Shown here piece after piece: positions 10,059 through 29,577 of a stretch of 64,000 nucleotides of DNA. Position numbers and translations under genes: made by a program. This DNA comes from a virus. Taxonomy: Duplodnaviria; Caudoviricetes. The DNA is taken from the IMG/VR virus record IMGVR_UViG_3300034170_000089, positions 1,094 through 65,093 of that record. The stretch is one strand, 5' to 3'. Below the pieces are notes generated by a model that was given only the letters and a program-made list of their open reading frames with translations, had not been told where the DNA came from and searched no databases. The stretch's first letter is position 1. Each line of letters begins with the position of its first letter.

Positions 10059-10181
10059 GGCCCGGCACGGTAACAGGGGCCCTCTCGCCTGGTCCAGAAC
10101 CTGAACGGGCGAACCGCTCCAGATGGGGAGTGGGTCGGAGCGCGCTTGTCACGTGCAGCGAAAACGGATGTGCTGAGGGTC

Positions 10182-10598
10182 ATGAAGAAGGCGACCATCG
10201 CGGCCATCGTCGTTGGCGGCCTCATCTGCGTAGCTGCCGTCTCCGGATCGCAGAAGGGAGGGGGCGGGGGCCGCGGCGCGGATCGTGCCACCGAACCTGA
10301 GAAGGCGCCAGTGCCTCCCAAGACCAAAGCAGAGCAGGAGTCGGACAGGAGGTCCTCCGCGGCCTACGCATGCCGGATGTTCGTCGAGAGGAGCCTTCAC
10401 GATCCCGACTCCGCTGAGTTCGACGACGAGTCGGAGTACGTGGTGTCCAAATCGCGGGGCGGCGTTTACCGGGTGGTGGTGACGCTCCGCGCGCGCAACG
10501 GGTTCAACGCTCTGCGCCACGGCTCCGTGATCTGCAAGACCAGGCACAGCGACGCGCTGGAGGGCTGGGAGCCCGTCGAGATCCAGAACGGGGAGTAG
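10182..10598 (+). CDS. Membrane-anchored protein (moron)
   Basis: N-terminal hydrophobic helix; C..FV..SLHDPDSAEF and RARNGFNAL motifs. Confidence 0.7.
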   Translation: MKKATIAAIVVGGLICVAAVSGSQKGGGGGRGADRATEPEKAPVPPKTKAEQESDRRSSAAYACRMFVERSLHDPDSAEFDDESEYVVSKSRGGVYRVVVTLRARNGFNALRHGSVICKTRHSDALEGWEPVEIQNGE

Positions 10599-10725: not shown

Positions 10726-11229
10726 ATGAGGGCGACGGTCCTGTCGGTGGTGGTGGCGGTGGTGGTGGCGGCAGCCGGCTGCCAGGAACTTCTCCCGGAG
10801 CCGCCCGTCGAACTGGAAGTAGACGGCGTCACTTTCGGACGAAGCGACGCCACCCCCCCGCTTCCGACGACCATCCTGGACCCCGACCGGCTGACGCTCG
10901 TGCTCCAACGCTCCGCGGCGCTCTGGGGCGTGCCAGTATCCAACCTCGCTGGCTTGCGGGTCGGCCTTTCCTCGCAGCCGGTCTGCCCCGACGGTACGCG
11001 TGACCTAGCGTGTTACCAGGCCGGGGTAATCTGGCTGTGGAATCCGGAGCAGGCGCCATACGACGCGTGGCAGACCGCTGCCTCTGCTTGCCCAGAGCAT
11101 GCGTTACCGCACGAGATAGGGCACTTCCTGATCGGGGACCCGACGCACTCGGACCCTCGGTTTATCGACGCGGAGCATGTACTGGACGATCTTCCCAGGT
11201 GTGAGCCCGGGCCGATGTGCACTGGCTAG
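10726..11229 (+). CDS. Lipoprotein with HExxH zinc-metallopeptidase motif
   Basis: Lipobox AAGC; LPHEIGHFL; TAAGGT -10-like box 6 nt before ATG (probably leaderless). Confidence 0.7.
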   Translation: MRATVLSVVVAVVVAAAGCQELLPEPPVELEVDGVTFGRSDATPPLPTTILDPDRLTLVLQRSAALWGVPVSNLAGLRVGLSSQPVCPDGTRDLACYQAGVIWLWNPEQAPYDAWQTAASACPEHALPHEIGHFLIGDPTHSDPRFIDAEHVLDDLPRCEPGPMCTG

Positions 11230-12104
11230 AATTCCTTGGCTACTAGCTGCATGTTGATCACCTGGGCGCTCACCGTGCCGCCGGACGCCTGAAGCTGGAC
11301 TGAATACGAATAGGTCCCAGACGCCACAGGGTCAATGACCGTGATGCTAGCCTGGGAGTCACCGTTGAGCAAGTTGATGCCACCCACGACGGTCGTACCC
11401 CGCATCACCACAGCAAACACTACCCCAGAGAAGCACTCCATATAGGCGTTCACGGCTCCAGCGAACGGCTGGAACAGCAACAGAACAGGGCGCCCAGTTG
11501 TGGTTATACTTACGGTAGAGTTCGTTACGGTCGAATTCCCGGCTGCGCTTACCAAGAACGTGCCGGAAGAACCGGAGATGACCGGGGTTCGGTCCACATA
11601 CCCCTTGTTCGCTCCGTCGGTGGAGGCAGAAGGCGTCGCTACGTTGTTCAGCGCGTTCCCGTGGCAGTCGATCGCGCCGGTGCTCCCGATCGAAACGCGC
11701 TGGACACTGTTGGTGTACAGGTCGAGACCGAACTGACCCGCCCCGGACGTGCGCTTGCTGCCGACGCCCTCGCCCGAAGTGGACACGCCGAACCGAAGCG
11801 ATGAAGCGATCGTCCCGGTGTTCGCGCCGCTCGCATCGACGGTCGCCTGGCCTGCGACGGAGATGTCCGTCGACGAGGTGAGTCCAGCCGCGAACGTGTG
11901 CCGAGAGGTCCAGGTCAGCGTCTGGCCGAGGAGGCCATCGAGAACGACGCAGGCGTCGTAGATGACCTTGAACAGCCAGTTGAAGTATTGAGCGGGAGGC
12001 TTCTCCGAGGCGATCCACCCCGAGTCCTTCTTCGACTCCAGCGGCTCCGTGATGCCCGCTCCGCCTCCGGTGGCCCAGCGTGGCAGCTTTGCGAGAAGTC
12101 CCAT
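11226..12104 (-). CDS. Tail fibre protein
   Basis: N-terminal PRWA...KKDSGW..EKPPAQYFNWL attachment domain; DGANKGYVD stalk motif; follows the DUF2612 gene. Confidence 0.85.
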   Translation of the reverse strand: MGLLAKLPRWATGGGAGITEPLESKKDSGWIASEKPPAQYFNWLFKVIYDACVVLDGLLGQTLTWTSRHTFAAGLTSSTDISVAGQATVDASGANTGTIASSLRFGVSTSGEGVGSKRTSGAGQFGLDLYTNSVQRVSIGSTGAIDCHGNALNNVATPSASTDGANKGYVDRTPVISGSSGTFLVSAAGNSTVTNSTVSITTTGRPVLLLFQPFAGAVNAYMECFSGVVFAVVMRGTTVVGGINLLNGDSQASITVIDPVASGTYSYSVQLQASGGTVSAQVINMQLVAKEF

Positions 12105-12113
12105 TGTGATCTC

Positions 12114-12692
12114 CTAGAGTGCGGTCGCGAAGAGGCCGCCCGTGGATGGATTGGTCGAGTCCCCGAACCCTGCTCCGTTCGGATCGCACGCGAAGGAGGT
12201 GGCGTCGGCGGTGGTGGGGCTCACGAACACGGCGCGGACGCCGGCCGGCTTCACCTTCTGCAGGATGCTGTTTGACTCGACCGGATCGATCGCGAAGGTG
12301 GAGGCGCCCATGGTGAGGGTGAACGCGGCGGGGAATTCCTCCGACAGCGTTACCGAAGAGGTGCCGTTCACGAGCGCGGTGAAGATGTCGATGATCTCCG
12401 GGATGGTGCCGCTCGACCGGTTGATCTTCACCCGCGTCTTGATCCAGAGACGGTAGGTGTCGTCGATGCGGCCCTCTCTGGGCTGGTTGACGATCCTGCC
12501 GTACTCGTCTAGCCGCTCCCCGTGGACGTTGTCGATCGTCTCGGAGAAGACGGCCCAGAAGGCATCCTCGAGATCCTGGTAGCGGCCAGCGCACAGGCCG
12601 ATGAGGGCCTTGAGGTTGTCCGCGTCCCGGTACTGGCGGACCACGTTGGAGAGGGCGATCCCCTCGTGGTCCGTGATGTGGTCGAGGGCCAT
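12114..12692 (-). CDS. Baseplate wedge protein (DUF2612-like)
   Basis: QYR, GERLDEYGRIV, DDTYRLWIK, KPAGV motifs. Confidence 0.85.
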   Translation of the reverse strand: MALDHITDHEGIALSNVVRQYRDADNLKALIGLCAGRYQDLEDAFWAVFSETIDNVHGERLDEYGRIVNQPREGRIDDTYRLWIKTRVKINRSSGTIPEIIDIFTALVNGTSSVTLSEEFPAAFTLTMGASTFAIDPVESNSILQKVKPAGVRAVFVSPTTADATSFACDPNGAGFGDSTNPSTGGLFATAL

Positions 12693-12694
12693 GG

Positions 12695-14056
12695 TTACGG
12701 CGTGTCCGAGTAGTTGGTGGCGTTGACGACGATCCGAGAGGTGTCGAGGTTCGCCTGCTGGGTGGCGGTGATGCCGACCTTGGTCTCGGTCGTGGGGCTC
12801 GCGCTGGTGTCGATGTAGAGCGAGGGCACGTCCATCACGCCACTGACAGTGATGGCGCGCTTGATCCGGAAGCTCACCACGTCCACGCCTGCGCCCTGGT
12901 TCGCCTGGCCGAAGGCGACGATCGCGGCCTTGACCTGGGCATCCCCGTCGGCCGGGTAGGTGGTCGGATCCTTCTGGAGATTGACCACGACGTAGATCGA
13001 GACCTGCGACGGCCGGCTGAACTTCACGGTGTGCGACTTCCCCTGAGCGTCAACGGACGATCCGGTGGTGGTCCCGTAGGTCTCGATGCCGGCGGGCTTG
13101 GCGTCGAACACTGCGTCGAGGACGCTCTGATCGGTGCCTCCGGAGACCAGCACCTCAATCGACTTGGCCGGCCGGCTGAATGCGTCCGTCGAGAGGGTCG
13201 TGTTCTCGAAGACGGTGCAGGCCGTCACCCCGGAGACCTGGAGCACGGCGGCCCGGACCGCGTCGGGAGCCGATAGGCCCTGGGACGCGAGCTCCGTCAG
13301 GCGGCGCAGGCGCAGGGCGACCGGCGTCTCTCGATCGGCCCCGGCAGCGGCGTCGGCCGCGTTCGAGCACCATGACCACCCGCCGACGGGCGTCTCGATG
13401 ACGGTCAGGGTGCGCGCGGGCGCGACGAGGGGACCTGTGTCGACCGCCTCGGCCGCGACGTCCGCAGCCCCGGAGCCGGCACCGAGATAGACCCAGTGCG
13501 CCCCGCCGTCGGTGATGTCGGTCGCTGTCCCCGTGGGCCCGCCGGAGCTGGCCGAGGTTCCCGCGGTGATCGCCTCGTAGACGTTCCCGCCGTTCGTCGC
13601 CCGAGCGCCGACCGAGTAGGCGTGGCTGCTCGCCCAGGCCGAGACGGTCGTGATCGTCGCGTCGGCCTTCGTCGAGAACTTCACGCCCGTCCCGGAGACG
13701 CTCGCCTGAGATCCGGCCGGAACGACGGTGCCTGCGACGCCCCCGATCGTGAGGGCCGAGAGCTGGGACTTCGTCGCGGCCTTCGGGCCGACGGTCCCGG
13801 TGATAGCGCACAGGCTCGACTGCGCGGCCCCGGTCGCCTGGTCGGGGTCTCGCGCGGAGACCACTTCCTCGGCCATATCCCAGAGGTCAGACTCGCGGGC
13901 CGCCAGGATGCCGATGATCTGGCCCTCCGGCGTGGAGGCGTCGAGGCTCACGCCCTCGCCGAAGACGCCGCGGAACGAGGTCTGGAGCTCGGAGAGGATG
14001 ACGTCCAAGGTCTTCGGGACGAAACCACTGTCAGTCAATCCGTAGTCGATCGCCAT
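12695..14056 (-). CDS. Baseplate J / gp47 family protein
   Basis: YGLTDSGF, TPEGQIIGI, DPDQATG, VFEN, KPAGIETYG, KFSRP motifs. Confidence 0.9.
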   Translation of the reverse strand: MAIDYGLTDSGFVPKTLDVILSELQTSFRGVFGEGVSLDASTPEGQIIGILAARESDLWDMAEEVVSARDPDQATGAAQSSLCAITGTVGPKAATKSQLSALTIGGVAGTVVPAGSQASVSGTGVKFSTKADATITTVSAWASSHAYSVGARATNGGNVYEAITAGTSASSGGPTGTATDITDGGAHWVYLGAGSGAADVAAEAVDTGPLVAPARTLTVIETPVGGWSWCSNAADAAAGADRETPVALRLRRLTELASQGLSAPDAVRAAVLQVSGVTACTVFENTTLSTDAFSRPAKSIEVLVSGGTDQSVLDAVFDAKPAGIETYGTTTGSSVDAQGKSHTVKFSRPSQVSIYVVVNLQKDPTTYPADGDAQVKAAIVAFGQANQGAGVDVVSFRIKRAITVSGVMDVPSLYIDTSASPTTETKVGITATQQANLDTSRIVVNATNYSDTP

Positions 14057-14058
14057 GG

Positions 14059-14430
14059 TCACCCGATCTGGACGGTCCCGGAGACGGTCCCGGTCGTGCC
14101 GTTCATCGACGCCTGCGCGTCATAGGAGGCGGAGAGAGTGCGCGCGGAGGGGTCGATCGAGACGGTCAGGCTCTTGAGCGCCATCACGCCCGGGGTCTGG
14201 AGGATTCGATCTCGGAGCACCTGCCGGATTACCGACTCGCTGCGCGGCTTGCCGAGGATCTTCTCGTAGAGCGGCAGGCCCTCAGCCGGATCGAGGAACC
14301 ACTCTCCGGCGGCGAGCAGCATGCGGCTCTCCAGGAGCTGGCGAACCGCCTCGAGCGGATCCGTCACCCGCTGGAGCGCGCCTCCGCTCCACACGATGTC
14401 TCCGTCCTGGACCCGCAACCCGAACGCCAT
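14059..14430 (-). CDS. Baseplate wedge / sheath initiator (gp25/gp46-like)
   Basis: GEWFLD..EGLP and ILQTPGV motifs; upstream of J. Confidence 0.85.
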   Translation of the reverse strand: MAFGLRVQDGDIVWSGGALQRVTDPLEAVRQLLESRMLLAAGEWFLDPAEGLPLYEKILGKPRSESVIRQVLRDRILQTPGVMALKSLTVSIDPSARTLSASYDAQASMNGTTGTVSGTVQIG

Positions 14431-14434
14431 GGGT

Positions 14435-14506
14435 CCCACCTATCACCTCGGCTCCAGCGCTCACCTGGTCTCGATTCGCGCTCCCGACGCGGCTTCGATA
14501 GGTGGG
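14435..14506. promoter_or_regulatory. Divergent pair of GATAGGTGGG motifs (putative late promoters)
   Basis: CCCACCTATC at 14435-14444 (minus) and GATAGGTGGG at 14497-14506 (plus), each 4 nt before an ATGGCG start. Confidence 0.65.
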
Positions 14507-14510
14507 GCTC

Positions 14511-15044
14511 ATGGCGGCGCTCTCGATCATCCACGCGCGCAGTCCGAACCGCAGCAGCCGTCACGGCGCCGCGATCGACTGCGTCGTGCTGCACACCACC
14601 GAGGGCGCGGCGAACGGGGCCGTGGCCTGGCTCCAGGACCCGGCCAGCAAGGCCAGCGCGCACTACCTCATCGCCGCGGACGGGCGGATCTACCAGCTCG
14701 TCGACGAGTCCGAGGAGGCCTGGCACGCGGGCAACCCGGCGGTGAACCGGAGCTCGATCGGCATCGAGCTCGAGGGGAAGGCGTCCGAAGAGGCCACGTT
14801 CACGGCGCCGATGATGAGCTCCCTGCTCGGGATGCTGCGCTACCTGCTCGGCCGGTACCACATCCCCGCCGATCGGCAGCACGTGTTCGGCCACTGCGAC
14901 GTGCCGGACCCTGACCACCCGGGCCAGCTCGGCGGCCACCGCCACCACACCGATCCGGGCGCGTTCTTCCCCTGGAATCAGCTCTTTTCCGCCCTCAACC
15001 CCGCGCCGGCCGGGACCCCCGCCGGGAAGGAGACCCCAGCATGA
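14511..15044 (+). CDS. Endolysin, N-acetylmuramoyl-L-alanine amidase (Amidase_2)
   Basis: SPN, VVLHTT, SAHY, AWHAG, N..SIGIE, GH, DPG motifs. Confidence 0.92.
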   Translation: MAALSIIHARSPNRSSRHGAAIDCVVLHTTEGAANGAVAWLQDPASKASAHYLIAADGRIYQLVDESEEAWHAGNPAVNRSSIGIELEGKASEEATFTAPMMSSLLGMLRYLLGRYHIPADRQHVFGHCDVPDPDHPGQLGGHRHHTDPGAFFPWNQLFSALNPAPAGTPAGKETPA

Positions 15045-15607
15045 AACGTTCCGTTAAGTGGTTCGGCCTCTTGGCCTTCGTCGCCATCATCGCCCTGCCC
15101 GTTCTCGCGCTCGCGCAGGTGCCCGATCCGTCCGACTCGTCCGCGTTCCTCTCCGCGCTGCTCGGCGCGTTCAAGTCGGGCGACAAGGGCGTGCTCGCCG
15201 CGCTCGCCATCGCCGGCGTGATCTACGTCTTGCGCAAGTTCAGCTCGAAGATCCCGGGCCTGGGCGCGTTCTTCGCGACCTCCCTGGGCGGTGCCACCTT
15301 CGCCGGCATCGTCGTCCTCCTGGGCGGCCTTGCCGCGGCGCTCTACTCGCACCAGACCATCACCGGCGCGTACCTCTGGGCTCTCCTCCTCGCGACCTGG
15401 ACCGCGGCCGGCGCCTGGACCTGGGTCCGGCGCATGCTCGCGCTGCTCAGCAGGATCCCGACGGTCGGTGGGCTCTTCGGCCTGATCCTCTCCATCCTCG
15501 GCGGCGACCCCGACTCGCAGGTACAGGCCGCGGCCGACGCGGCGAAGACCAGCGTCCCTCCGACCACGCCCGGCGCCGACGTTGCCGCCGGTCTCGATCC
15601 GAAGTAG
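15041..15607 (+). CDS. Multi-pass membrane protein, holin candidate
   Basis: Signal-like N-terminus plus several hydrophobic helices; overlaps the endolysin stop. Confidence 0.6.
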   Translation: MKRSVKWFGLLAFVAIIALPVLALAQVPDPSDSSAFLSALLGAFKSGDKGVLAALAIAGVIYVLRKFSSKIPGLGAFFATSLGGATFAGIVVLLGGLAAALYSHQTITGAYLWALLLATWTAAGAWTWVRRMLALLSRIPTVGGLFGLILSILGGDPDSQVQAAADAAKTSVPPTTPGADVAAGLDPK

Positions 15608-15613
15608 GCCACC

Positions 15614-16069
15614 ATGCGCGCCACCCTGATTCTCGTTCTGGCTGGGCTGGGAGCGGTAGCAGCTCCCGGGGTCGGCGTCTGTGATCCGCTCCCGGCCCCG
15701 CCGCCAAACGAATTGCACATCGTCGTCGCCCCGGGTTCGCCGATCACCACCGCGGCGGGCCCGGTCATCACGGCCAAGGCCGACGAGCTCAACTCGTCCT
15801 TCGGGGGCATCTACACGCCCCCCGCGCTCGCGCGCTGGGATCTCGAGCGGCTCAAGCGCCTGGAGGCGGAGCGCGATGCGGCCCTGAAGGTGGCCTATGA
15901 CCGTCCGCCCCCGGGGCTCAAGCCGCTTGCGGTCGGGCTCGGGATCGGCGTCGCCGTGGGCGGAACGGCCGCGGCGTGGTCGGTCGACGGAAAGCCGGGC
16001 GTCAAAGCCATCGCTTCGATCGGCTCGGCCGCGCTCGGGTCGCTCATCCTCTGGCTGGCCAGCCGATAG
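15614..16069 (+). CDS. Exported/membrane protein, possible lysis accessory
   Basis: Signal peptide, short coiled coil, C-terminal Gly-rich hydrophobic segments. Confidence 0.6.
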   Translation: MRATLILVLAGLGAVAAPGVGVCDPLPAPPPNELHIVVAPGSPITTAAGPVITAKADELNSSFGGIYTPPALARWDLERLKRLEAERDAALKVAYDRPPPGLKPLAVGLGIGVAVGGTAAAWSVDGKPGVKAIASIGSAALGSLILWLASR

Positions 16070-16077
16070 GAGTCACC

Positions 16078-16536
16078 ATGCGTAAAGCAGCGCTTCTCTT
16101 CGTCGCCCTCTCGCTGGTCGCATCTCGGGCGTCCGCCGCGCCGGACTGGTTCCAGAAGCGCGACTGGTCCGAGGCGCAAGCGCTCACCCGCGCCACGCCG
16201 ACCACCGACGGGACGATCGGGCTCGACCTCTCCAGCTCGATCGCCTTCATGGTCGTGCTCGACGCTCCGACCGGCCAGACGCTCTCGGGCGGCGGGGAGG
16301 TCGACCTCTACTACTACGACGCCACGCTGGCGGCCTGGTACCCGGGCCCGGCCACCGGGAACTGGACGTCGCTATCTGAGTGCGCGGGGAAGGCCCGATG
16401 CGTCCACGGGACCTACGACGTCACGATGCCGCGGGGGAAGGTGATCGCCGTGACCAACGGTGTGACGGTCAGTTCCGGCACCCAGGTCACCATGCGGATC
16501 CTCTCCACCACCTCCGGCCAGTCCATCTCCTACTGA
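16078..16536 (+). CDS. Signal-peptide protein, beta-rich
   Basis: MRKAALLFVALSLVASRASA signal with A-x-A site; RBS AGGAG. Confidence 0.75.
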   Translation: MRKAALLFVALSLVASRASAAPDWFQKRDWSEAQALTRATPTTDGTIGLDLSSSIAFMVVLDAPTGQTLSGGGEVDLYYYDATLAAWYPGPATGNWTSLSECAGKARCVHGTYDVTMPRGKVIAVTNGVTVSSGTQVTMRILSTTSGQSISY

Positions 16537-16543
16537 GGTGCGC

Positions 16544-17605
16544 ATGCGATCGGCTCTCGTTCTGCTGGCTCTTCTCCCCGCGCTGGCCCTCGGCCAGGCG
16601 GTTCCGCATGGATCGTCGACGGGATCCTCCGGCGGGTGTCTCGATGGAGCTGCGGGCGCTGTTGGTCCGATCGGCCCCACTGGAGCAACGGGTCCGGCTG
16701 GCGCCACCGGCGCCACGGGACAGACCGGGCCCGCGGGATCGGGCATCAACTCCGTCACCTCGATCCCGGCCACGCCGTCGTCCGGGGATGTGCCGTTCGT
16801 ATATCACCAGGGGTCAACCACTCCGGGCTGGATCGGCAACATCGGGACGCTCGGGGTGGCCACGTACCAGCTACCTTTCGTCGGCGCGGGTCGGCCGATC
16901 TTCGGGTGCGTGACTCCAGCCGGGTTCGGCACGAGCACACTCACCAACTTCGGATCGGCCGGGACCAGTTCAGTAACGGGTACCGCAGCCGGAGTATCGT
17001 TCGACCTATCCTCCGCTCTGGGGCGCTCGCTCAAGGTTCAGTACGACAGCGCGTCGTCCAGTACCGGTCCGACTCCGGCCTCTGCCGGCGTCCGCGCGAA
17101 CGCGCATGTCACCTGGCGCGGGAACGGCAGCGGCACCGGCGGCTGGGACTGGTGGGGCGCGTGCGGAGCCCTGACCACGGTCAGCGGCCAGCGATTCTTC
17201 TGCGGCCTCAAGGAAGGTACCAGCGCGATCTCGACCACGGCCGAGCCCTCAGCGCAGATCCACACCGCCTACGTAGGGTGCGACTCGACGCAGACCACGC
17301 TGAGGGCGTGCAGCAACGACGCCAGCGCATCGGCCGCATGCACCGACCTCGGGGCCAACTTTCCGTGCGGAGGGGCCTACTACAACGTCCGGATCTGGGC
17401 CAAGCCCAGCGACACCAGCATTGGCTACCAGGTTGACCGCGTTGACTCGGCATTCACCGCGAGCGGCACGTTCGCCACCCAGCTCCCGCGGGCTACCGGA
17501 TCGCTCGGCCTTTCCTATGACGTGACCGTCAACACCGGGCCCACTGCGACCAATGCGGTGAGTTCGGCCTATTTCGGCGGCCAATGCCTGGTGGCCAACC
17601 CGTGA
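16544..17605 (+). CDS. Signal-peptide, collagen-repeat, tail-fibre-like protein
   Basis: MRSALVLLALLPALALG signal; about 10 G-X-Y triplets; C-terminal WRGN...GG...RFFCGL...EPS...ND...DLGANFP domain. Confidence 0.75.
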   Translation: MRSALVLLALLPALALGQAVPHGSSTGSSGGCLDGAAGAVGPIGPTGATGPAGATGATGQTGPAGSGINSVTSIPATPSSGDVPFVYHQGSTTPGWIGNIGTLGVATYQLPFVGAGRPIFGCVTPAGFGTSTLTNFGSAGTSSVTGTAAGVSFDLSSALGRSLKVQYDSASSSTGPTPASAGVRANAHVTWRGNGSGTGGWDWWGACGALTTVSGQRFFCGLKEGTSAISTTAEPSAQIHTAYVGCDSTQTTLRACSNDASASAACTDLGANFPCGGAYYNVRIWAKPSDTSIGYQVDRVDSAFTASGTFATQLPRATGSLGLSYDVTVNTGPTATNAVSSAYFGGQCLVANP

Positions 17606-17613
17606 GATCGGCC

Positions 17614-19005
17614 ATGCGCCGTCTTCTGCTGTGCGTCGCCGTCCTCGCCCCGCTCGCCGCGTTGGCGGACTACGTCTGCCGCGCCAAGCCGGCGGCGACC
17701 ACGAAGCTGATTGTGTCGATCACCCACGACGACACCGATGACAACCAGTACACGACCGCGGCCCCAATCCTAGAAGCGCACGGGATGCGCGCCACGTTCT
17801 ACGTCAACATTGGCCGGCTGATGCCCGAGACTGCGAACCAGGGTTACATGGTTCTGTCGCAGGTCCTGGATCTGGAGAGTCGCGGGTTCGATTTGGGGAT
17901 CCACGGTCTGGACCACCAGAGCGACCTGATCACGCTGATCCCGCTCGACAAGATGAAGCGCGAACTCTGCGACTCGCGGACGGAGGCGCTAATGATGGGT
18001 ATGCACCCAAAGTCATTCGCGTATCCAAACGGCCTATACGACGACTACACCCGAAGCCTGGCCTACTCCTGCGGCTACAACACGGCCCGTTCCGTAGGGG
18101 CTACCGAGATCACGGCGTCTGGCCCCTACTACGAGACCATCCCGCCACTGGACACGTACGCGATCAGGGCGCCGAGTTCGTTCGAGGCCCCCGCATCCAC
18201 GCTCTCTGTGCTCCAGGGTTACGTAACCCGAGCCGAGGCCGCGGCAGTGAGCGCAGGCAAGGTCGGCTGGCTCGTTATGAATTTTCACAACGTGTGCGCT
18301 GACTATACGTTGTGCCCCGGCGGGCAGATCAACCACACGATCGATGCCGCGACGTACACGGCATTCCTCGACTGGCTCCAGCCGCGCGCGGCCTCGGGGA
18401 CGATCGTGAAGACCGTCTCGGAGACGTTCGGAGGCGCGCTCAAGGCGGGCGTATCGAGCGGAACTCCGCCCCTGATCCTCGGCGACATGGAGTCCTATCT
18501 GGGTGGCGCGACCAGCGCCCCCGACTGCTGGCTCCGATACCAGAGCGGCACCAGCACTGGGACCTGGAGCAGGGTGACGGGCCTTTCCGGCATCGGCTAC
18601 GCGCAACAGGTGGTGATGTCGGCATGGAACTCGGGAGCAGCCTGGGTGCTGCGGCAGAACGACAGTTCAAGCGACTACCGGTCATGCACAACCCAGGTCA
18701 CTCCCGGCCGGAGCTACACGCTCTCCTGCTCGTACAAGTCGGACGTGCCGGTACGTCTGCACCTCTACCACCGCGACGCGACCACGGGGGCCTGGCTGAC
18801 GCTCTCCACAACCGCGACGTCGCCGGCAGCGCCCACTTCTCCGTCCACCATCAGCTACACCCTGACCGCGCCCGGTTCCGGGTTCGTAGACCGGACCCTG
18901 TCGTTCGGCCTCGAGATCACCAGCGTCTGTGCGACTGGGTGCCTCAACGGCAACAGCACCGGGACCATGATCGTCGACGACTGCACGGTCGTGGACAACG
19001 GATGA
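17614..19005 (+). CDS. Exported polysaccharide deacetylase (CE4/NodB) with C-terminal CBM-like domain
   Basis: Signal peptide; ITHDD, ATFYV, HGLDH, FAYPNG, NFHNV motifs; VTPGRSYTLSCSYKS jelly-roll-like tail. Confidence 0.85.
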   Translation: MRRLLLCVAVLAPLAALADYVCRAKPAATTKLIVSITHDDTDDNQYTTAAPILEAHGMRATFYVNIGRLMPETANQGYMVLSQVLDLESRGFDLGIHGLDHQSDLITLIPLDKMKRELCDSRTEALMMGMHPKSFAYPNGLYDDYTRSLAYSCGYNTARSVGATEITASGPYYETIPPLDTYAIRAPSSFEAPASTLSVLQGYVTRAEAAAVSAGKVGWLVMNFHNVCADYTLCPGGQINHTIDAATYTAFLDWLQPRAASGTIVKTVSETFGGALKAGVSSGTPPLILGDMESYLGGATSAPDCWLRYQSGTSTGTWSRVTGLSGIGYAQQVVMSAWNSGAAWVLRQNDSSSDYRSCTTQVTPGRSYTLSCSYKSDVPVRLHLYHRDATTGAWLTLSTTATSPAAPTSPSTISYTLTAPGSGFVDRTLSFGLEITSVCATGCLNGNSTGTMIVDDCTVVDNG

Positions 19006-19012
19006 GGTGACT

Positions 19013-21706
19013 ATGCGTAGAATACTCCTCGCCCTTCTTCTTGCTGCTCCGGTCGCCCGCGCCGCGGTCCCGACCGTCCGGATCACCGGCAACCAGCTCC
19101 TCCCGGACGGCTCGGCGCCGGCGGGGGGGACCATCACCTGCTCGCTGTCCCAGCCCGGGAGTGTGCCGGACGGGGTGATCGGTTCCTCTCAACGGGTGGC
19201 GGCCGAGGCGACCTTCACCCTGGCCAACGGCGGCGCGCTCCCGAGCACGGCCGCCCTCGTGCCCAACGACGCGATCACCCCTGGCCCGAACCTTACGACC
19301 TACGCCTGCGCGTTCCGCCTCCAGCTCCTGAACGGGCGCCAGGCCACGCCGTGGACCGAACGGTGGAGCATCTCGAGCTCGCCCAGCACCATCTCGATCG
19401 GCGCGATCACTCGCGTGGCGCAACCAGGTACGGCGGTGTTCGTCGCGGGACCGAAGGGCGATTCGGGCGTCGTTCCGCCGGTCACCACCTCCGATTACTT
19501 CGACCCGGCCGCGGCAGTCGCGGCCATGCGGGTGACGAGCGGCACCTACTCCGGCGGCTATCTGGTGGCACCGAACGGTTATCTGAACGTGTACTTTGCG
19601 GCGCTCGGCCTCCGGAGCTTCGTCACGGATCAGCCAGCCCAGGTCCAGGCGTTCCTCGACTTGGTCCTCGACAACCTGGTGAAGGTCAACGACGGGAGCC
19701 GCGGCCAGTACACGATCTATGACGTGGATGGGATGCAGACGACGCCCGTTCTGCGCGACCCGGACAGCAACGACAGCTACGCCGCAGTCGTGAACCTGCT
19801 CGCCTACGAGTACGCGAAGACGAACGGCAGTTGGGCGTGGTACTCGGGCCGCGCCGCGTTGCTGAAAAACATCGCCTACTACAACATTGCGACGGCGCGA
19901 AAGACCACCGCCAACGCCCCAGGGTTCGGCATGGCCCGGACCTTCCAGACGTCGGCGTGGGGCTCCTACTACAACGTCTGCCTGACCGAGGACAATGCGG
20001 AGGTCTACGCAGGGCTCGACGCGCTTTCCAAGGGCCTCGCGCAGATCGGCGACACGGACAGTTCGTACTACGCGGCCACTAGGGACGGCGTCGCGGCCGG
20101 GATGCACAACGCGACGTGGGGCACCTGGGACGATACCAATCGTCAATGGCTCATCAGCGACGCGCGCGCGCCGCTCGGGACCGCGTTTTACCCGGACGCG
20201 GTCACTCAAATCTTCGCGGAGACCTACGGCGTCCCCTCGGGCAATGCCGCGACCGATCGGCAGCGATACGACTGGGCGTGGTCGAAGCTCAACGCGCTGG
20301 CGCCGGGATGGTATCAGCACGCCAGCAACGACTTTCCGTGGTTGCAGCTCGGGTACGTGGCCGCACTGCGGGGAGCGTCGGACATGGCGGTTGGTCAACT
20401 GGCCCTGGCCCGGAATGCGTTCACCGCGGCCAAGCGGTCGATCCACGAGTGCGGCTGGTACCGCGGAATCGAGCGCATCTTGGCGGCCCGGGATGTATCG
20501 ATCGCTGGGGCTCGGTCTGCGGTGGCCCTCAACGGCACCACCTCGACGCCCCTCGTCGCGACCCCTGCGGCGGCCAACGACCCCAACGCCTACGGCATGT
20601 CCGTCACCACCTCCACCGCCTCGGTGGGCGGGAGCACCGCGGGCGGCACGGACCGCGCCTTGTCTGCCTGGAACGCATTCGCCTTCGCGCCGTCCTCATC
20701 CACGACGGGTGGAGTGTCGATCCGACTGAAAAAGGGCGCTTCAGTGGCGGACGGAGGCTCCGTCTCGGCCTACATCTACAGCGACAACGCAGGGGTGCCC
20801 GGGTCCGACATCTCCATGATCAACACCGGACTCCCGAGCACGACCGGGCTGCCGACGATCATCGGCACGTCGGAGATCGGGGCCTCCTACGCCAACCTCC
20901 CATTCAGAATCCCCAAGGTAGGTCTAACCGTGAACGGTATCTACTGGATCGTTCTCAAGACCTCGGGGATCTCGGGGGGCTCGCTCTACATCGACTCGGC
21001 GGCGGCTGGCGGGAATTTCGCGGCCAGCGCCCCCGACTCCGGCGGCGCGCCCGGCGCATGGACCACGTCCGCCTTCACCGGATCCATGTCGGTGAGCGGC
21101 TCGACGGGCCGCGGCGTCTACTCCTACTCCCCGGACGGACACTCGGTGGAGGCTTTCTCGGACACCGGCATCCCGATCTATGGCCGCGTCCAATACGGCG
21201 GGATCGCGGTGAAGGGCGACGCAGTAGGCAGCGGGATCGGCGTCGGAGGAACCTCCTACAACGGCATCGGGTCGCGCGGATCGTCGAACCTGGGACTTGC
21301 CGGACAGTTCATCTCGCTGGGCAACTATGGCGCGCAAATCCAGGGCACCGGCGGCGCGCAGCTTGTCGCCACGAGCGCCGGAGCGCCGGCCATGCAGGGC
21401 GTGAACACGGCCGGCGGCAACCTCTGGCAGGGGCTCGACTCGACCGCCAGCTACGCCAACACGTCGCAGATCGACAGCCACGGAAATACCTACCTGGCGG
21501 GCTCCTGGCTGGGGGCGGCGACCACGCTCGGGACGTGCGGCACGACGGACCCAGTCCACACCCTCCGGTTCGTGACGGGATCCGGGTCTACTCCAAGCAA
21601 GATCTGTTACTGCTCGTTTACTCCGACCGGCTCCGTATACGCCTGGGTCTCGCTCACGAAGAATAGCGCCGGCACCGGCATCGGCACCACCACCACCTGC
21701 CCCTGA
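19013..21706 (+). CDS. Large exported multidomain tail-spike-like protein
   Basis: MRRILLALLLAAPVARA signal; fibre-type N-domain (LVPNDAITP); helical Trp/Tyr-rich domain (DSNDSYAA, EDNAEVYAGL, FYPD); Gly-rich beta-repeats. Confidence 0.75.
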   Translation: MRRILLALLLAAPVARAAVPTVRITGNQLLPDGSAPAGGTITCSLSQPGSVPDGVIGSSQRVAAEATFTLANGGALPSTAALVPNDAITPGPNLTTYACAFRLQLLNGRQATPWTERWSISSSPSTISIGAITRVAQPGTAVFVAGPKGDSGVVPPVTTSDYFDPAAAVAAMRVTSGTYSGGYLVAPNGYLNVYFAALGLRSFVTDQPAQVQAFLDLVLDNLVKVNDGSRGQYTIYDVDGMQTTPVLRDPDSNDSYAAVVNLLAYEYAKTNGSWAWYSGRAALLKNIAYYNIATARKTTANAPGFGMARTFQTSAWGSYYNVCLTEDNAEVYAGLDALSKGLAQIGDTDSSYYAATRDGVAAGMHNATWGTWDDTNRQWLISDARAPLGTAFYPDAVTQIFAETYGVPSGNAATDRQRYDWAWSKLNALAPGWYQHASNDFPWLQLGYVAALRGASDMAVGQLALARNAFTAAKRSIHECGWYRGIERILAARDVSIAGARSAVALNGTTSTPLVATPAAANDPNAYGMSVTTSTASVGGSTAGGTDRALSAWNAFAFAPSSSTTGGVSIRLKKGASVADGGSVSAYIYSDNAGVPGSDISMINTGLPSTTGLPTIIGTSEIGASYANLPFRIPKVGLTVNGIYWIVLKTSGISGGSLYIDSAAAGGNFAASAPDSGGAPGAWTTSAFTGSMSVSGSTGRGVYSYSPDGHSVEAFSDTGIPIYGRVQYGGIAVKGDAVGSGIGVGGTSYNGIGSRGSSNLGLAGQFISLGNYGAQIQGTGGAQLVATSAGAPAMQGVNTAGGNLWQGLDSTASYANTSQIDSHGNTYLAGSWLGAATTLGTCGTTDPVHTLRFVTGSGSTPSKICYCSFTPTGSVYAWVSLTKNSAGTGIGTTTTCP

Positions 21707-21715
21707 GGAGCGACC

Positions 21716-22108
21716 ATGAGTGACCCTCTTCCCAGCGTGACGGTGGTAATCAATGGACAGCCGCCGGACGTGGCGGACGTCCTCGGCGACGTGACGCGCC
21801 TGCTGGTCGAGAACCTGAACGGCCAGGCCCTGGGCATGCTCCAGGCCGCGATCACCGACCAGGTCATGCCGGCAATCAAGAGCCAGCTCGGCGCGGCGGT
21901 CGCCACCGTGATCGCCGATTTCCAGGCCAACGGGTGGCCCGAGGTCGACCGCCGGGGCCAGCTCACCGGCAAGAAGACCACCCTCTCGGCGATCGTCACC
22001 ACCTGGCTCCTGCGCACGTTCGGCGGGCCGGACGCGCTCGACCCGTACCCGTCCCCGGACAGCGCGGCCGTGGAGCCCGCACCCTCAACGACAGGAGCCG
22101 CAACGTGA
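21716..22108 (+). CDS. Hypothetical protein
   Basis: RBS GAGGAG, coupled to neighbours. Confidence 0.65.
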   Translation: MSDPLPSVTVVINGQPPDVADVLGDVTRLLVENLNGQALGMLQAAITDQVMPAIKSQLGAAVATVIADFQANGWPEVDRRGQLTGKKTTLSAIVTTWLLRTFGGPDALDPYPSPDSAAVEPAPSTTGAAT

Positions 22109-22494
22109 CCGCCAAGAAGCACCTCGGCCTCACCTGGATGGAGTGGTTCATGCTGGGGATCGCCGCGGTGGCGCTGACCGCGGAGATCGTCGCCTTCGTG
22201 CAGGACCCGTCGCTCACGATCTCGGACACCATCCGGCGGGACTCGCGGCGCTGGCTCTGGGAGGCGTACCTCTTCGGTCTGCTGCCCGGTCACTTCTTCG
22301 CGCCGGCCATCAACTGGCGCCGCTTCGGCTGGCAGGACCGGCCCTGGATCTTCCCCGTCCTCTGGATCCTCACGGCCGCTGCAGTGGTCGCGCGGGATGT
22401 GTTCGTGGGCGGACAGGTTAGCCAATGGTGGACGCTCTGGGTAGCGCTCGGCGCGTTCGCCGAGGGCGCGATCCTGTGGAACCAGGGAGACTGA
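22105..22494 (+). CDS. Membrane protein, holin candidate
   Basis: GTGA overlap; 3-4 hydrophobic helices. Confidence 0.6.
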   Translation: MTAKKHLGLTWMEWFMLGIAAVALTAEIVAFVQDPSLTISDTIRRDSRRWLWEAYLFGLLPGHFFAPAINWRRFGWQDRPWIFPVLWILTAAAVVARDVFVGGQVSQWWTLWVALGAFAEGAILWNQGD

Positions 22495-22496
22495 CG

Positions 22497-22772
22497 GTGC
22501 GACGGGCGACCATCCTCGCGGCGCTGGGGCTCGTCTCCTGCCTGCATCGCGAGGCAGGCCCGATCGTGGTCAACACGGTCACGTTCTGCCAGGCCGCACG
22601 CCGCCGCCTACCGCCACCTCCCGATGAACCGGAGATCGCCTGGATGTCGGTGGAGTGCCCGAGCAGGTTCGGCGCCTGCCTCTCCGGAGCAGATGCCAAG
22701 AGCATGCTCGACTACATGAGGGCAGTGAACAAATGGAAACGGGCGGTCGCCCTAGCCGAGGTCCAACGATGA
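22497..22772 (+). CDS. Small lipoprotein, o-spanin candidate
   Basis: MRRATILAALGLVSC lipobox; Pro-rich stretch and additional cysteines. Confidence 0.55.
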   Translation: MRRATILAALGLVSCLHREAGPIVVNTVTFCQAARRRLPPPPDEPEIAWMSVECPSRFGACLSGADAKSMLDYMRAVNKWKRAVALAEVQR

Positions 22773-23155
22773 CTCCTCCGAGGCAAGAGCCCGAGTCCCT
22801 CGCCGGCAAGGCGCTCGAAGCGCTCTCCGGCGGGAAGCGTCGGTCGGACAGTGCATGGGCGCTCGGCAAGACGATCGCCCTGCTCGGGGCGACGATGTCC
22901 ACGCTCGGCACGGTGATCTACCTGATCCTGCGCGTCCTGGCCGGTCAGATGGAGGCGAACAACCGGCTCGTGGAGAAGATCGCCGACCAGTGGAGCCGTG
23001 ACCAGCAGGCGAACCGAGAAGCGCAGGAGCGGCTCGGGACGCGGCTCGACGCGATGACCCTGGAGTTCCAGGGTCTGTCGGCGACGCTCCGGGCTGTGGC
23101 GTACATCTCGCGCGGCGCGGACGCGCCCCAGCGTCAAGGGAGGCATACGCCATGA
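22769..23155 (+). CDS. Single-pass membrane protein with coiled coil (holin or i-spanin candidate)
   Basis: One TM helix followed by a heptad-like segment; ATGA overlaps. Confidence 0.55.
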   Translation: MTPPRQEPESLAGKALEALSGGKRRSDSAWALGKTIALLGATMSTLGTVIYLILRVLAGQMEANNRLVEKIADQWSRDQQANREAQERLGTRLDAMTLEFQGLSATLRAVAYISRGADAPQRQGRHTP

Positions 23156-24018
23156 TCGCAGCCCTGGCGGCTCTCGTTCTCTCGGCGACGGACCTGTGGG
23201 GCGTGCAGGAGATCCGGCCTACGATCGCGGGCGGTCGGGAGTGGTTCCTCCCCGAGACGGCGGACGCGCCCGATGCTACCTGGCGGCCCGAGAGCGCCGC
23301 GGTCCTGCGGATACCTGGGGGCTGGCACACGTGCGGCGCGACGACGAACGGGGAGACCCGGCTCAACGTGACCTCTCCGGCTGGCGCCGCATGGTGGCGC
23401 AACGTGGAGGCGACGGCGTACGCTCGACGATTCGCCCTGGAGCCGGCCAGCACCCAGCGACCCCACGTCGAGCTGGTGGTTCGGGGCGAGCGGCACTCGG
23501 CGATCCCCTTCGCGCCCAGCGCCTACAACCTCGGCGTGCCAGCTCCAGCCGGTACCGTCACGCCGCCGGGATGGCCCTGGGCCACCGAGGCGACCGTCAA
23601 CCCGCACTGCGCGGGAACCGGGTATCACGCGAATTTCTACGATGGCCAGGTGCTGTTCGAAAAGGAGCTCTCGCACTCCGAAGGCTACGGCTCCCAGCGC
23701 GGCTCCGTGAGCGTCCCAGGGCTCTCGCTCGACAACTGGAACGGTTTCAAGGCGCTCGCCTACAACTCACTCGACGGGGCTGCGGTCCACCTCGAGGCGT
23801 GGGTCGACCTCGGCGCCACGGGGACATGGACCAAGGTCGCCAGCGTCACCGACACCACCGGATGGCCCGCGACCACGCTGGAGGGCTGCGACGCGGCGCC
23901 GTACGGTTACTCCAGGTCGATGCCGATCACGTGGGCTGGCCCGTGGGTGCTCTTCCGCGCGGACGCGATGGCGCTGGATTTCCGGTGGCTCTCGGTCCGA
24001 GAGATCGCGCCGAGGTAG
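23152..24018 (+). CDS. Exported Trp-rich beta protein (lectin/lyase-like)
   Basis: Short signal MIAALAALVLSA; GGREWF, WRNVEAT, FEKELSH, ITWAGP, LSVREI motifs. Confidence 0.65.
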   Translation: MIAALAALVLSATDLWGVQEIRPTIAGGREWFLPETADAPDATWRPESAAVLRIPGGWHTCGATTNGETRLNVTSPAGAAWWRNVEATAYARRFALEPASTQRPHVELVVRGERHSAIPFAPSAYNLGVPAPAGTVTPPGWPWATEATVNPHCAGTGYHANFYDGQVLFEKELSHSEGYGSQRGSVSVPGLSLDNWNGFKALAYNSLDGAAVHLEAWVDLGATGTWTKVASVTDTTGWPATTLEGCDAAPYGYSRSMPITWAGPWVLFRADAMALDFRWLSVREIAPR

Positions 24019-24019
24019 G

Positions 24020-24550
24020 TCAGGGCAGAACCGCGGCGATCCTGCGGAGGATCTCGAGGTCCAGGGTGACGAGCGCGCGGCCGTCCTCGGCGCGGAGGGG
24101 GGCGAGTTGGATCTCCCGCAGCAGCGCGACGACGGGCGCTTCGGCTGCGCGCCGGTCACCGAGCGCCGGATAGGCCATCTCGTTGGCGCAGGCGTAGCCG
24201 AGGCGCGGGTACCAGTGGTTCAGGATGGCGTCGCGACTGGAGCGGAGCCGCTCGTTCTCACTGATCAGCTCGGAACGGTCGGCGAGGAGGGCGGGAAGGG
24301 TGTTCCTGGCTGTGGCGACGAGCTGAGCGTCTTGCTGAGAGTGAACGGTAGCAAGCTGGGTTGGCTCGGCCGAGCTGTTCTGGGCGCGCCGCAGATCGAT
24401 GGCGTCCTGGCTAACGATCCGGAAGACGCTGCTGGTCCGGTTCGGCCCGAACACGAGATCTTCGCGCCTGACCCACCACGTGCTCGGGGTCGCGTCTCCG
24501 AGTCGCTGCTCCAGTTCCTTGATGGTCTTCGGGTCGATCACCAGAGTCAT
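24020..24550 (-). CDS. Ead/Ea22-like protein
   Basis: TPSTW...DAQLVATARNTLPALL..SENERLR pattern. Confidence 0.6.
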   Translation of the reverse strand: MTLVIDPKTIKELEQRLGDATPSTWWVRREDLVFGPNRTSSVFRIVSQDAIDLRRAQNSSAEPTQLATVHSQQDAQLVATARNTLPALLADRSELISENERLRSSRDAILNHWYPRLGYACANEMAYPALGDRRAAEAPVVALLREIQLAPLRAEDGRALVTLDLEILRRIAAVLP

Positions 24551-24888
24551 CCTTTCAGAGACGCAGCGATTCGGCAGTCCTGGGCGTGACCTCGGAAGTG
24601 GCCGCCGGCGATGTGATCTTCTCGGACCTCAGGCAGCCACGCATCCCAGGCGGCCGGATCGTGCCCGTGGCAGACATCGCACTGATCGGATAGGCCATTC
24701 CACTGGATCTCCCGCAGAAGCGCGAGGTGCTCTTTGCGCTCGTCCAGGAGGGCGGGAACAGCGTCGCGCGCGAGCGTACGGAGATCGTGCCGCAGCAGAC
24801 CCTCGCGCCCCTCGATGAACTCGCCCCGGTCCCATTGCACCAGGGCCGTCCATTTCGCGTGATCCTTCGGGTCGATCGCCATGGTCAT
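24547..24888 (-). CDS. Ea22-like paralog with CxxC/H/C motif
   Basis: ARDAVPALLDER, CDVC, HAQDC. Confidence 0.6.
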   Translation of the reverse strand: MTMAIDPKDHAKWTALVQWDRGEFIEGREGLLRHDLRTLARDAVPALLDERKEHLALLREIQWNGLSDQCDVCHGHDPAAWDAWLPEVREDHIAGGHFRGHAQDCRIAASLKG

Positions 24889-25268
24889 CCCCTCAGGAAC
24901 GCGGCGAGGAGGCAGCCCGAATCGTGGCTGATCCTGGCCCTATTGAGCGCGAGCGACTCACGCATGGCGGGGGTCCAGTCCTCGGAGGGCCGAATTCCTC
25001 CGCAGTTCGGGCAGGCGGACACCAGCAGCGCGCCGGGATAGCTGAGCTTCACGCTCCACTCTAGGTCCCGCAGTAGCGCGAGCATCCTGACGCGCTCGGC
25101 GAGGAGGGCGGGGATCGCCTCGCGGGCGATGGCGCAGCCGGCATTAAGAGTCGCGGCGAGGTTCTTGGCGTCCATCGGGACGCGCTGCGCCGCGAGTGCA
25201 TCCATCGCTTCCAGTGTCTCCCATGCGAGCCCTCTCCACTCCTCGATCGTCTTCTGGTCGATCGGCAT
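24885..25268 (-). CDS. Ea22-like paralog with CxxC/H/C motif
   Basis: AREAIPALLAER, CPNC, HDSGC. Confidence 0.6.
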   Translation of the reverse strand: MPIDQKTIEEWRGLAWETLEAMDALAAQRVPMDAKNLAATLNAGCAIAREAIPALLAERVRMLALLRDLEWSVKLSYPGALLVSACPNCGGIRPSEDWTPAMRESLALNRARISHDSGCLLAAFLRG

Positions 25269-25270
25269 CG

Positions 25271-25582
25271 TCACTTCCTCCGCGTCAAGGTGGCGCGCGC
25301 CTGGCAGGGTGCGCACCAGGTGATCGGGTCCGGGGACCGCGGGTCTTCGGGGCAGGGAGGGGCGCTGAATTCGCAGGGCCTACGCGACCAGGCCTCGACC
25401 AGCAAGCGCAGTCTCCGAAGCTCCTCGTGTACCGAGAGCATCTCTACGTGGTCAGCGAGAAGCGAGCGAAGCGCTGCGTCGTCCTCGTCGCGGCCCGGAT
25501 CTCCTGCGGAGCCCCGGGTCTCCTCCTGGCGGCTCACCGGAGGAAGGATCACGTCAGGCATGCCCTTGTAGTCGATCGGCAT
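25271..25582 (-). CDS. Hypothetical protein
   Basis: Starts MPID like its neighbour; C-terminal cysteines. Confidence 0.55.
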   Translation of the reverse strand: MPIDYKGMPDVILPPVSRQEETRGSAGDPGRDEDDAALRSLLADHVEMLSVHEELRRLRLLVEAWSRRPCEFSAPPCPEDPRSPDPITWCAPCQARATLTRRK

Positions 25583-25584
25583 CG

Positions 25585-25833
25585 TTACTCCTCGAGTCGC
25601 TTCGCGGGCGTCACGTCCACGGTCTGGATGCTCGCGGGAGGAGCCGTAAACGGAAGCGCGCACAGCTCCGCCCAGTTCGGCGCCGGGTCGGAGAGCCCGA
25701 CCCCCAGGCGCTGGTTGAGGTCCCGGTACGCTATACGCTCCTGCACCGCGGCGATCTTAGCTCGGACTCGCGCCACGTCATCCCGGCAAGGGGGCGCGGA
25801 TAGAACGACGGCGGCGATCAGTGCGGTCAGCAT
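25585..25833 (-). CDS. Small signal-peptide protein
   Basis: RBS AGAGGAG; MLTALIAAVVLSA. Confidence 0.6.
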   Translation of the reverse strand: MLTALIAAVVLSAPPCRDDVARVRAKIAAVQERIAYRDLNQRLGVGLSDPAPNWAELCALPFTAPPASIQTVDVTPAKRLEE

Positions 25834-29551: not shown

Positions 29552-29577
29552 GGACTGGGGCCCTCGGGGTCCGCAGT

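Follow-up and report, generated by a model that had tools for sequence, protein, structure and literature searches.

We analyzed a group of genes in the genome of an uncultivated tailed phage (Duplodnaviria; Caudoviricetes) whose products resemble parts of tail fibers and tail spikes and begin with sequences that look like Sec-type signal peptides. The DNA studied, referred to below as the window, is a stretch of 64,000 nucleotides: the 65,093-base-pair IMG/VR virus record IMGVR_UViG_3300034170_000089, which has direct terminal repeats, minus its first 1,093 bases. In tailed phages, the cytoplasm is assumed to be where fibers and spikes fold. An initial interpretation of the letters alone (the sequence-only reading) had proposed that five genes downstream of the endolysin, starting at 16078, 16544, 17614, 19013 and 23152, encode a set of cysteine-rich, fiber-like and glycan-active proteins that is exported to the periplasm late in infection. 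We refer to the products of these genes as D, E, F, G and K, respectively.

The five genes belong to a tightly packed unit on the + strand that starts at 14502, divergent from a block of baseplate genes, and in which neighboring genes overlap or are separated by gaps of 6-9 bases. The order is endolysin, 15041, 15614, D, E, F, G, H, a membrane open reading frame (ORF), an ORF with a lipobox, a membrane/coiled-coil ORF, and K (ORFs without a letter are named by their start), and the reading frames are backed by the guanine-plus-cytosine (GC) content of the codon positions. The first gene (14502..15044) encodes an N-acetylmuramoyl-L-alanine amidase (Pfam Amidase_2, E-value 8.9e-32), and 20 of its 22 matches in PHROGs fall in the lysis category, as endolysin or amidase. 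A simple, weak scan of positions 14000-24600 detected nothing promoter-like and, on the + strand, no site resembling a terminator. The proposed late operon downstream of the endolysin agrees with this arrangement.

D (16078..16536) is a small protein, predicted to be secreted, with a leader and a 130-residue beta-sandwich (AlphaFold2 [AF2] predicted local distance difference test [pLDDT] of 71.6). E (16544..17605) has a leader, 9 cysteines, and a collagen stretch of 11 uninterrupted G-X-Y triplets at residues 35-67, which is where PHROG tail-fiber families match; Pfam Collagen was not reported at an E-value of 0.01. Its C-terminal part is a fiber-tip domain. Residues 64-337 match phrog_13925 (6e-11). 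This tip domain recurs in leaderless fiber-like proteins (P0012, P0014, Rhodobacter phage RcCWillis gp17 and Curvibacter phage P26059A_0006) and also in leader-bearing ones (P0010, P0019 and P0003). RcCWillis gp17 (L008 4285-6510) is a fiber-like protein of 741 amino acids, annotated as hypothetical, and is encoded among replication genes (DNA polymerase, nuclease and ribonucleotide reductase). F (17614..19005) consists of a leader, a CE4 polysaccharide deacetylase domain at residues 29-157 (Polysacc_deac_1, PF01522, E-value 2.3e-15, 57.1 bits against a cut-off of 23.1) and a C-terminal beta-rich part, and matches the polysaccharide deacetylase of Protein Data Bank (PDB) entry 6dq3 (8.4e-6). 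It contains Asp39-Asp40, His97-x3-His101 and YPNG at 137; the Asp-Asp and His-x3-His pairs are the metal-binding and catalytic motifs of CE4 enzymes.

G is an 897-residue mosaic with 8 cysteines. Its 17-residue leader (19013..19063) ends in Ala-Arg-Ala, and GAGGTG lies upstream of the start. Residues 18-150 (19064..19462) form what we call the N-domain, a beta-sandwich that contains Cys43 and Cys99 and belongs to a large modular spike-like family found with phmmer. The middle domain, at about residues 160-500 (19490..20512), was modeled by AF2 at a pLDDT of about 97 and has the (alpha/alpha)6-barrel fold of glycoside hydrolases. Foldseek gave 42 matches in the PDB with E-values <= 0.001, nearly all of them glycoside hydrolases and a few of them complement chains, the nearest folds being GH76 (6u4z, E-value 1.9e-5), MmpH (7qsj, target-normalized template-modeling score [TMt] 0.66), GH116, GH78 and GH125. 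Identity to the nearest glycoside hydrolases is 9-16%, with no Pfam family assigned, and the domain is homologous to the middle of the leaderless fiber-like proteins P0004-P0008. The C-terminal beta domains (20615..21706), which are common to P0002, P0003, P0067 and P0071, comprise a confidently modeled beta-sandwich at residues 535-700 and a poorly modeled stretch of the last 180 residues (720-897); in BFVD, this part of the protein is matched over 170-250 columns by proteins of the collagen-repeat and minor-tail kinds.

The three larger proteins share more than their position. P0002 and P0085 carry a G-type N-domain fused to a CE4 domain, and in P0003 the same N-domain is joined to collagen and tip regions like those of E. 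The three proteins are thus drawn from one pool of shuffling modules. The description of these proteins as fiber- or spike-like was correct for E (collagen triplets and tip domain), F (CE4 domain) and G (multidomain spike-like protein), and their modules match those of tail fibers and tail spikes in sequence searches, BFVD and PHROGs. The cysteine counts also held: 9 in E, 12 in F (11 after the leader), and 8 in G.

K (23152..24018) is a 288-residue beta-rich protein and a weak member of the putatively exported set. Its N-terminal hydrophobic stretch is weak and uncharged, lacking a basic residue, and is interrupted by Asp at position 14. A jelly-roll fold was predicted (ESM Atlas model, predicted template-modeling score 0.84), and neighbors carry PF14099 (14% of members) and PF06439, a lead only to a possible concanavalin-like or polysaccharide-lyase-like fold. 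The ESM Atlas clusters nearest to K (features 0.97-0.98; structure TM 0.77-0.80) consist of hypothetical proteins, mostly from Nitrososphaerota (archaea), which is odd for a high-GC phage of bacterial type.

We called a leader when an N-terminus had a basic residue, a 10-residue hydrophobic window with a mean Kyte-Doolittle value >2.2, and small residues at -3 and -1. Eight of the 76 phage ORFs were flagged by this rule: 10726, 15041, 15614, 16078, 16544, 17614, 19013 and 46124. Six of these are consecutive (15041 to 19013), a run that was reached in only 4 of 200,000 label shuffles (p = 2e-5). The endolysin was not flagged. The five signal-peptide-like starts that had been listed were thus found for D, E, F and G, but not for K; the run is also longer than had been claimed, because it takes in 15041 and 15614, and a lipobox-type signal is present at 22497-22772. 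A Sec-type signal peptide, cut by signal peptidase I, combines a basic n-region with a hydrophobic core of 7-15 residues and small residues at -3 and -1, whereas a Tat (twin-arginine translocation) signal has a conserved twin arginine in a longer n-region and a moderately hydrophobic core. F and G have Arg-Arg, but their relatives have Arg-Lys, Lys-Arg, Lys or a single Arg. Because the basic residues vary and the leaders are short (Leu-rich and 11-31 residues in length, with 17-21 in most), a Sec signal fits better than a Tat signal.

Leaders called in this way might not be functional export signals at all. They could be mis-called 5' extensions of the genes, or hydrophobic segments with another role such as uncleaved membrane anchors. 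High-GC DNA translates into peptides rich in Ala, Leu and Arg, and alternative starts are found at codon 17 of the F gene (TTG) and codon 18 of the K gene (GTG), so the leaders of these two proteins could in principle be bypassed. The next in-frame start is at codon 58 in D, codon 83 in E and codon 51 in G. These positions lie inside conserved residues, and the leaders of D, E and G are therefore not annotation artefacts unless the proteins are truncated. Starts downstream of the leader, which would have undone the export proposal, are in this sense excluded for D, E and G and possible for F and K. In addition, the leader ATG has a purine-rich, Shine-Dalgarno-like site ahead of it in the genes for D, E, G and K, and relatives retain the n-h-c pattern even though their leader sequences are different. 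Three members of the N-domain family described below are closer to what this explanation predicts, having only 11-residue uncharged leaders, and so is the member in locus L002, which starts at TTG and has no basic residue. Given the run of six consecutive ORFs and the conserved pattern, we consider it very improbable that the leaders are without function in export.

The leader of D is conserved among its relatives. In a collection of 5.8 billion proteins, the relatives (38-41% identity) have a leader in seven of seven cases, with unrelated leader sequences, and the copies in four IMG/VR loci (L004-L007) all have leaders, again of differing sequence. D adjoins two leader-bearing ORFs in L004 and follows directly after the capsid gene in L005. 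In L006 it has two leader-bearing ORFs on one side and, on the other, a holin-like gene together with an NlpC/P60 gene; in L007 it lies among four other signal-bearing ORFs, between a capsid gene and a lysozyme gene. From these arrangements, a module made up of a small exported D and larger exported proteins near lysis genes appears to recur in unrelated contigs, with D as its recurring marker. A protein of ~145 amino acids that precedes the leader-bearing gene in L002 was considered as a further relative of D and rejected (BLASTP E-value 0.73).

The N-domain of G provided the main comparison between proteins with and without a leader. When G was used as a phmmer query on 1.84 billion representatives, there were 428 hits; the best 150 of them were examined. 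Among 209 proteins from our searches, 45 carry the N-domain, and 8 ORFs in IMG/VR loci were added to give a set of 53. In the group of 45, the protein begins at domain residue 1-2 in 23 cases and with a hydrophobic leader of 11-21 residues in 21 (in P0103 the leader sits behind a mis-called longer start); the remaining protein has another kind of extension. The eight locus ORFs are split evenly, with single leader forms in L002, L003, L010 and L014 and two leaderless forms each in L012 and L013. In total there are 27 leaderless members, 25 with a hydrophobic leader of 11-31 amino acids that ends exactly at the same conserved first residue of the domain, and one other. Because the leader ends where the domain starts, cleavage by signal peptidase would give the N-terminus that the leaderless relatives have after loss of the initiator Met. 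A quick maximum-likelihood tree built from the domain shows six changes between the leader and leaderless states, of which at least two are forced by well-supported branches.

Presence of a leader was accompanied by more cysteines. Both Cys43 and Cys99 (G numbering) are present in 18 of the 25 leader forms and in none of the 27 leaderless forms. The median number of cysteines per 100 residues of whole protein is 1.69 in leader forms and 0.55 in leaderless forms (Mann-Whitney p 2.5e-6).

Taken together, these comparisons suggest that D, E, F and G mature outside the cytoplasm. Leaders are retained by relatives (all those found for D and nearly half of the N-domain set), they end where leaderless relatives begin, and leader forms are richer in cysteine, all of which favor real export. 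We consider it quite probable that the leader-bearing proteins of the operon are exported. The idea of a disulfide-bonded fiber and enzyme kit exported late in infection is partly supported by the position of the operon, the homology of the modules and the comparative leader data, but K is a doubtful part of it.

The genes around D to K are mostly of lysis type. Directly after the endolysin, 15041..15607 encodes a membrane protein with a leader-like N-terminus and several hydrophobic segments, a holin-like candidate whose ATG is preceded by GGAGA. The product of 15614..16069 has a leader-like N-terminus, with Cys at residue 23, and a hydrophobic C-terminus, and may be a unimolecular spanin. 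Downstream of G, 21716..22108 encodes H, a 130-residue protein without a leader, and 22138..22494 (start at 22105 or 22138) a membrane protein with about four hydrophobic segments, as judged from the translation and codon-position GC. The ORF at 22497..22772 (GGGAG upstream; third-position GC 0.79) specifies a small lipoprotein candidate of 91 amino acids with a Leu-Val-Ser-Cys lipobox, resembling an outer-membrane spanin; the next ORF, 22769..23155, whose start overlaps the preceding stop (ATGA), has one membrane segment and a charged helical C-terminal part and resembles an inner-membrane spanin. These two form a spanin-like pair, in reversed order relative to the usual one and without a family match, at the end of the operon opposite the endolysin. 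With the possible unimolecular spanin of 15614..16069 counted as well, the phage may be equipped with two devices for disrupting the outer membrane. From this gene order, the genes for the predicted exported proteins are embedded among lysis-type genes. Pfam gave no family for 22138..22494, 22497..22772 or 22769..23155, Pfam and PHROGs gave none for D, G, H, K, 15041 or 15614, and the neighboring genes in the other loci had almost no families in these two databases.

Matches in PHROGs indicate a phage of myovirus type, with a sheath (2524-4005), tape measure (5090-6649) and hub (7591-8421). The GC content in the window is 64-73%, and no genes for transfer RNAs were found. Baseplate wedge genes and a 292-residue fiber with a typical fiber N-terminus (11226-12104, canonical and leaderless) form an inverted block on the - strand (11226-14439). 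Judged by sequence, the phage is far from cultured phages: there was no megablast match to the window among cultured phages, and the sheath is <30% identical to its 571 tblastn matches, which are mostly from phages of Pseudomonas, Escherichia and Salmonella. D, G and K had no relatives among 50,697 cultured phage records, and none of K was found in IMG/VR. No relatives were recovered from viral contigs when G or K was the only query or when a leaderless subgroup was used, nor from genome contigs and metagenome contigs in profile searches with the N-domain alignment; E, G, K and the N-domain profile had no meaningful match among PDB sequences. To place the putatively exported proteins in the periplasm presumes a diderm host, which we infer only from the lipoprotein and membrane/coiled-coil gene pair and from the distant sheath relatives in phages of Gram-negative hosts.

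Several other genes touch on these subjects. A Gp138-type central spike gene (8418-9041) is followed directly by 9092-9721, which encodes a collagen-repeat protein without a leader (DUF7481, E-value 3.3e-7); the phage would thus have a cytoplasmic collagen-like tail protein beside the putatively exported one. A canonical leader and 7 cysteines, without a family match, are found in the product of 46124-46594, far from the operon at the start of a + strand late region. Just beyond K, on the - strand at 24020-25663, three to four consecutive small ORFs have similar N-termini (Met-x-Ile-Asp-x-Lys...) and look like tandem paralogs.

Our preferred, though tentative, interpretation, to which we give somewhat less than an even chance, is that the proteins encoded at 16078-21706, and perhaps K, are derivatives of tail-fiber and tail-spike modules that acquired Sec-type leaders and act as free proteins on envelope glycans. 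The genes at 16078-21706 would be transcribed late, together with the lysis genes. The chains would pass unfolded through SecYEG, be cut by signal peptidase I after an Ala-x-Ala (or Ala-x-Gly) site, and fold outside the cytoplasm, partly with disulfide bonds. The result would be a kit of four parts: the small beta-sandwich protein D, the collagen-like, lectin-type fiber E, the CE4 deacetylase F, and G, an (alpha/alpha)6 glycosidase with a spike N-domain. As free proteins, acting from the periplasmic side, they would bind, deacetylate and cut polysaccharide of the host's envelope or extracellular matrix, both ahead of lysis and in its course, and they would afterwards be released as stable soluble enzymes. 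Possible effects are easier escape of progeny, destruction of receptors on debris, and stripping of neighboring cells.

The same modules are those from which fibers and spikes are built, and the exported proteins could instead be parts of the virion. They would be oxidized and folded in the periplasm and attach to finished tails only when the inner membrane has been opened by holin, or once the cell has lysed, and the progeny would carry disulfide-stabilized receptor-binding or depolymerase spikes. The N-domain occupies the very start of the protein, the place of spike anchors, and cleavage at the predicted site restores the N-terminus of the leaderless forms. Gene position in other contigs is consistent with such a role. 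In L012 and L013, a tail module with genes like those for TMP, Dit and Tal ends in leaderless N-domain genes; in these siphovirus-like contigs (L012 7164-8014 and L013 9995-10847) the N-domain is present as two tandem stand-alone ORFs of 108-171 amino acids, so it can exist without an enzymatic body. In L002, L003 and L010, the tape-measure gene and two other tail genes directly precede the leader-bearing gene, which in turn is closely followed by the lysis genes. Fiber genes can also lie far from tail modules, as RcCWillis gp17 does.

Other observations make attachment to the virion harder to reconcile with the data and fit free proteins better. In this phage, the genes are part of the lysis operon, downstream of the endolysin on the + strand, while the baseplate and fiber block is on the opposite strand and already has its leaderless fiber. 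D, E and F are without the N-domain that could serve as an anchor, and the D-type modules of L006 and L007 are also beside lysis genes. A docking partner shared by the three tail types that carry the N-domain was sought with tblastn and blastp, and none was detected. Docking would, we infer, be confined to the short interval between holin triggering and dilution. Our full-text literature searches on signal peptides, Sec export, the periplasm or disulfides in connection with tail fibers, tailspikes, receptor-binding proteins or depolymerases turned up no description of a leader-bearing fiber or spike of a tailed phage; passages of PMC3556154 and PMC12309495 did not bear on the question. We regard assembly of these proteins into virions as rather unlikely. 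A broader form of this proposal, that widespread uncultivated tailed phages make Sec-exported, disulfide-bonded spikes that are fitted to cytoplasmic tails when holin breaches the membrane, with D as a periplasmic adaptor or chaperone, we regard as unlikely.

Several results count against free envelope-glycan proteins. The spike N-domain is kept in all 25 leader forms, and a plain soluble enzyme has no obvious need for it. Leaderless homologs match PHROG tail-spike families, and because the leader-bearing genes of L002, L003 and L010 follow tail genes directly, the same place that their leaderless relatives have in L012 and L013, this placement fits a virion part as well. The leader calls depend on a heuristic n-h-c rule of our own. 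The association between cysteine pair and leader is not phylogenetically independent: there are only three independent contrasts (sign test, p = 0.25), and none of the four leader forms from IMG/VR (L002, L003, L010 and L014) has the pair. Finally, the best fold matches of D (XepA and YomS, see below) have a Z score of 7.8, within the range typical of models without a true match.

A role in lysogeny was also considered. The phage is temperate, to judge from the large serine recombinase encoded at 28022-29605. As a form of lysogenic conversion or superinfection exclusion, exported enzymes could alter or mask a surface polysaccharide receptor of the infected or lysogenic cell, blocking related phages and also the progeny. 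Periplasmic polysaccharide intermediates would be plausible targets for a CE4 deacetylase and a glycosidase, whose action on them could change a receptor. Other small envelope-directed genes adjoin the fiber gene. These are two + strand ORFs between the tail genes and the - strand fiber gene: 10146-10598, whose product has a membrane segment, and 10726-11229, whose product has a lipoprotein-type signal (Ala-Ala-Gly-Cys) and 6 cysteines. They may themselves be exclusion or conversion genes. The genes for D to G, however, are packed behind the endolysin, with no promoter-like or terminator-like site of their own in the weak scan, which argues for late lytic expression rather than expression from the prophage. 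Receptor modification by these proteins in lysogens thus seems improbable. On balance, we favor a free glycan-remodeling kit over docking at lysis and over receptor modification in lysogens.

The N-domain family is a large modular spike family in which members with a Sec-type leader stand beside members that lack one. A change from one form to the other took place more than once, and cysteines accompany the leader. If export is real, phages may routinely send a glycan-binding and glycan-cutting kit into the host envelope late in infection, with a hardly studied role in release or in destruction of receptors; alternatively, virion assembly would span two cell compartments. Exported late phage proteins and soluble depolymerases are already known; a two-compartment assembly line for virions, which would follow if docking were true, would be categorically new. 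The findings bear on the prediction of receptor-binding proteins and depolymerases in metagenomic phages, on the choice of an oxidizing compartment for expressing such enzymes, and on the possible role of unexplained exported lysis-cassette proteins such as XepA.

Among known systems, XepA of the defective Bacillus subtilis prophage PBSX is the closest to D in setting. The cited passages of PMC6834076 describe it as made late, exported, absent from mature particles, and encoded beside lysis genes. It is a beta-sandwich protein, exported across the cytoplasmic membrane, whose gene is next to holin and amidase genes, and it has no known function; late expression and export are likewise predicted for D. 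XepA and YomS (SPbeta) are the best fold matches of D, but the match is weak (Z 7.8; root-mean-square deviation 3.4-5.2; 99-104 residues aligned), without sequence similarity, and Z scores of 7-8 are common for unrelated models. Unlike D, XepA is a two-domain pentamer from a phage of a monoderm host, and it stands alone, whereas D is accompanied by fiber-like and glycan-active proteins.

Among late phage proteins, the fOg44 endolysin Lys44 (PMC6116005) and the T4 antiholin RI (PMC8385771) are exported through the Sec system of the host by means of cleavable signal peptides, according to the passages cited. These are lysis effectors or regulators. In contrast, the putatively exported proteins here are fiber-, lectin- and glycan-enzyme-like, and the endolysin is leaderless. 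In the passages of the review that we cite (PMC6116005), signal peptides are mentioned for endolysins only.

The glycanase WceF of Pantoea stewartii is an exported bacterial protein with a tail-spike fold; like G, it is a tail-spike-type, glycan-cutting protein with an N-terminal export signal, and it is thought, according to the cited part of PMC7949094, to act on exopolysaccharide in the periplasm or biofilm. As described there, WceF is chromosomal, in a cluster for exopolysaccharide synthesis; its Tat signal is 28 residues long, and its body is a beta-helix. The operon proteins are phage-encoded and have short Sec-like leaders, and the enzyme domain of G is an (alpha/alpha)6 barrel.

The operon proteins are also comparable to the tail-spike and tail-fiber depolymerases of phages, which to our knowledge are made without signal peptides. 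Both have a conserved N-terminal domain joined to exchangeable enzymatic or binding bodies. The likeness extends to fiber-like proteins of cultured phages, in which the tip domain of E recurs, and to the PHROG tail-spike families that the leaderless N-domain members match.

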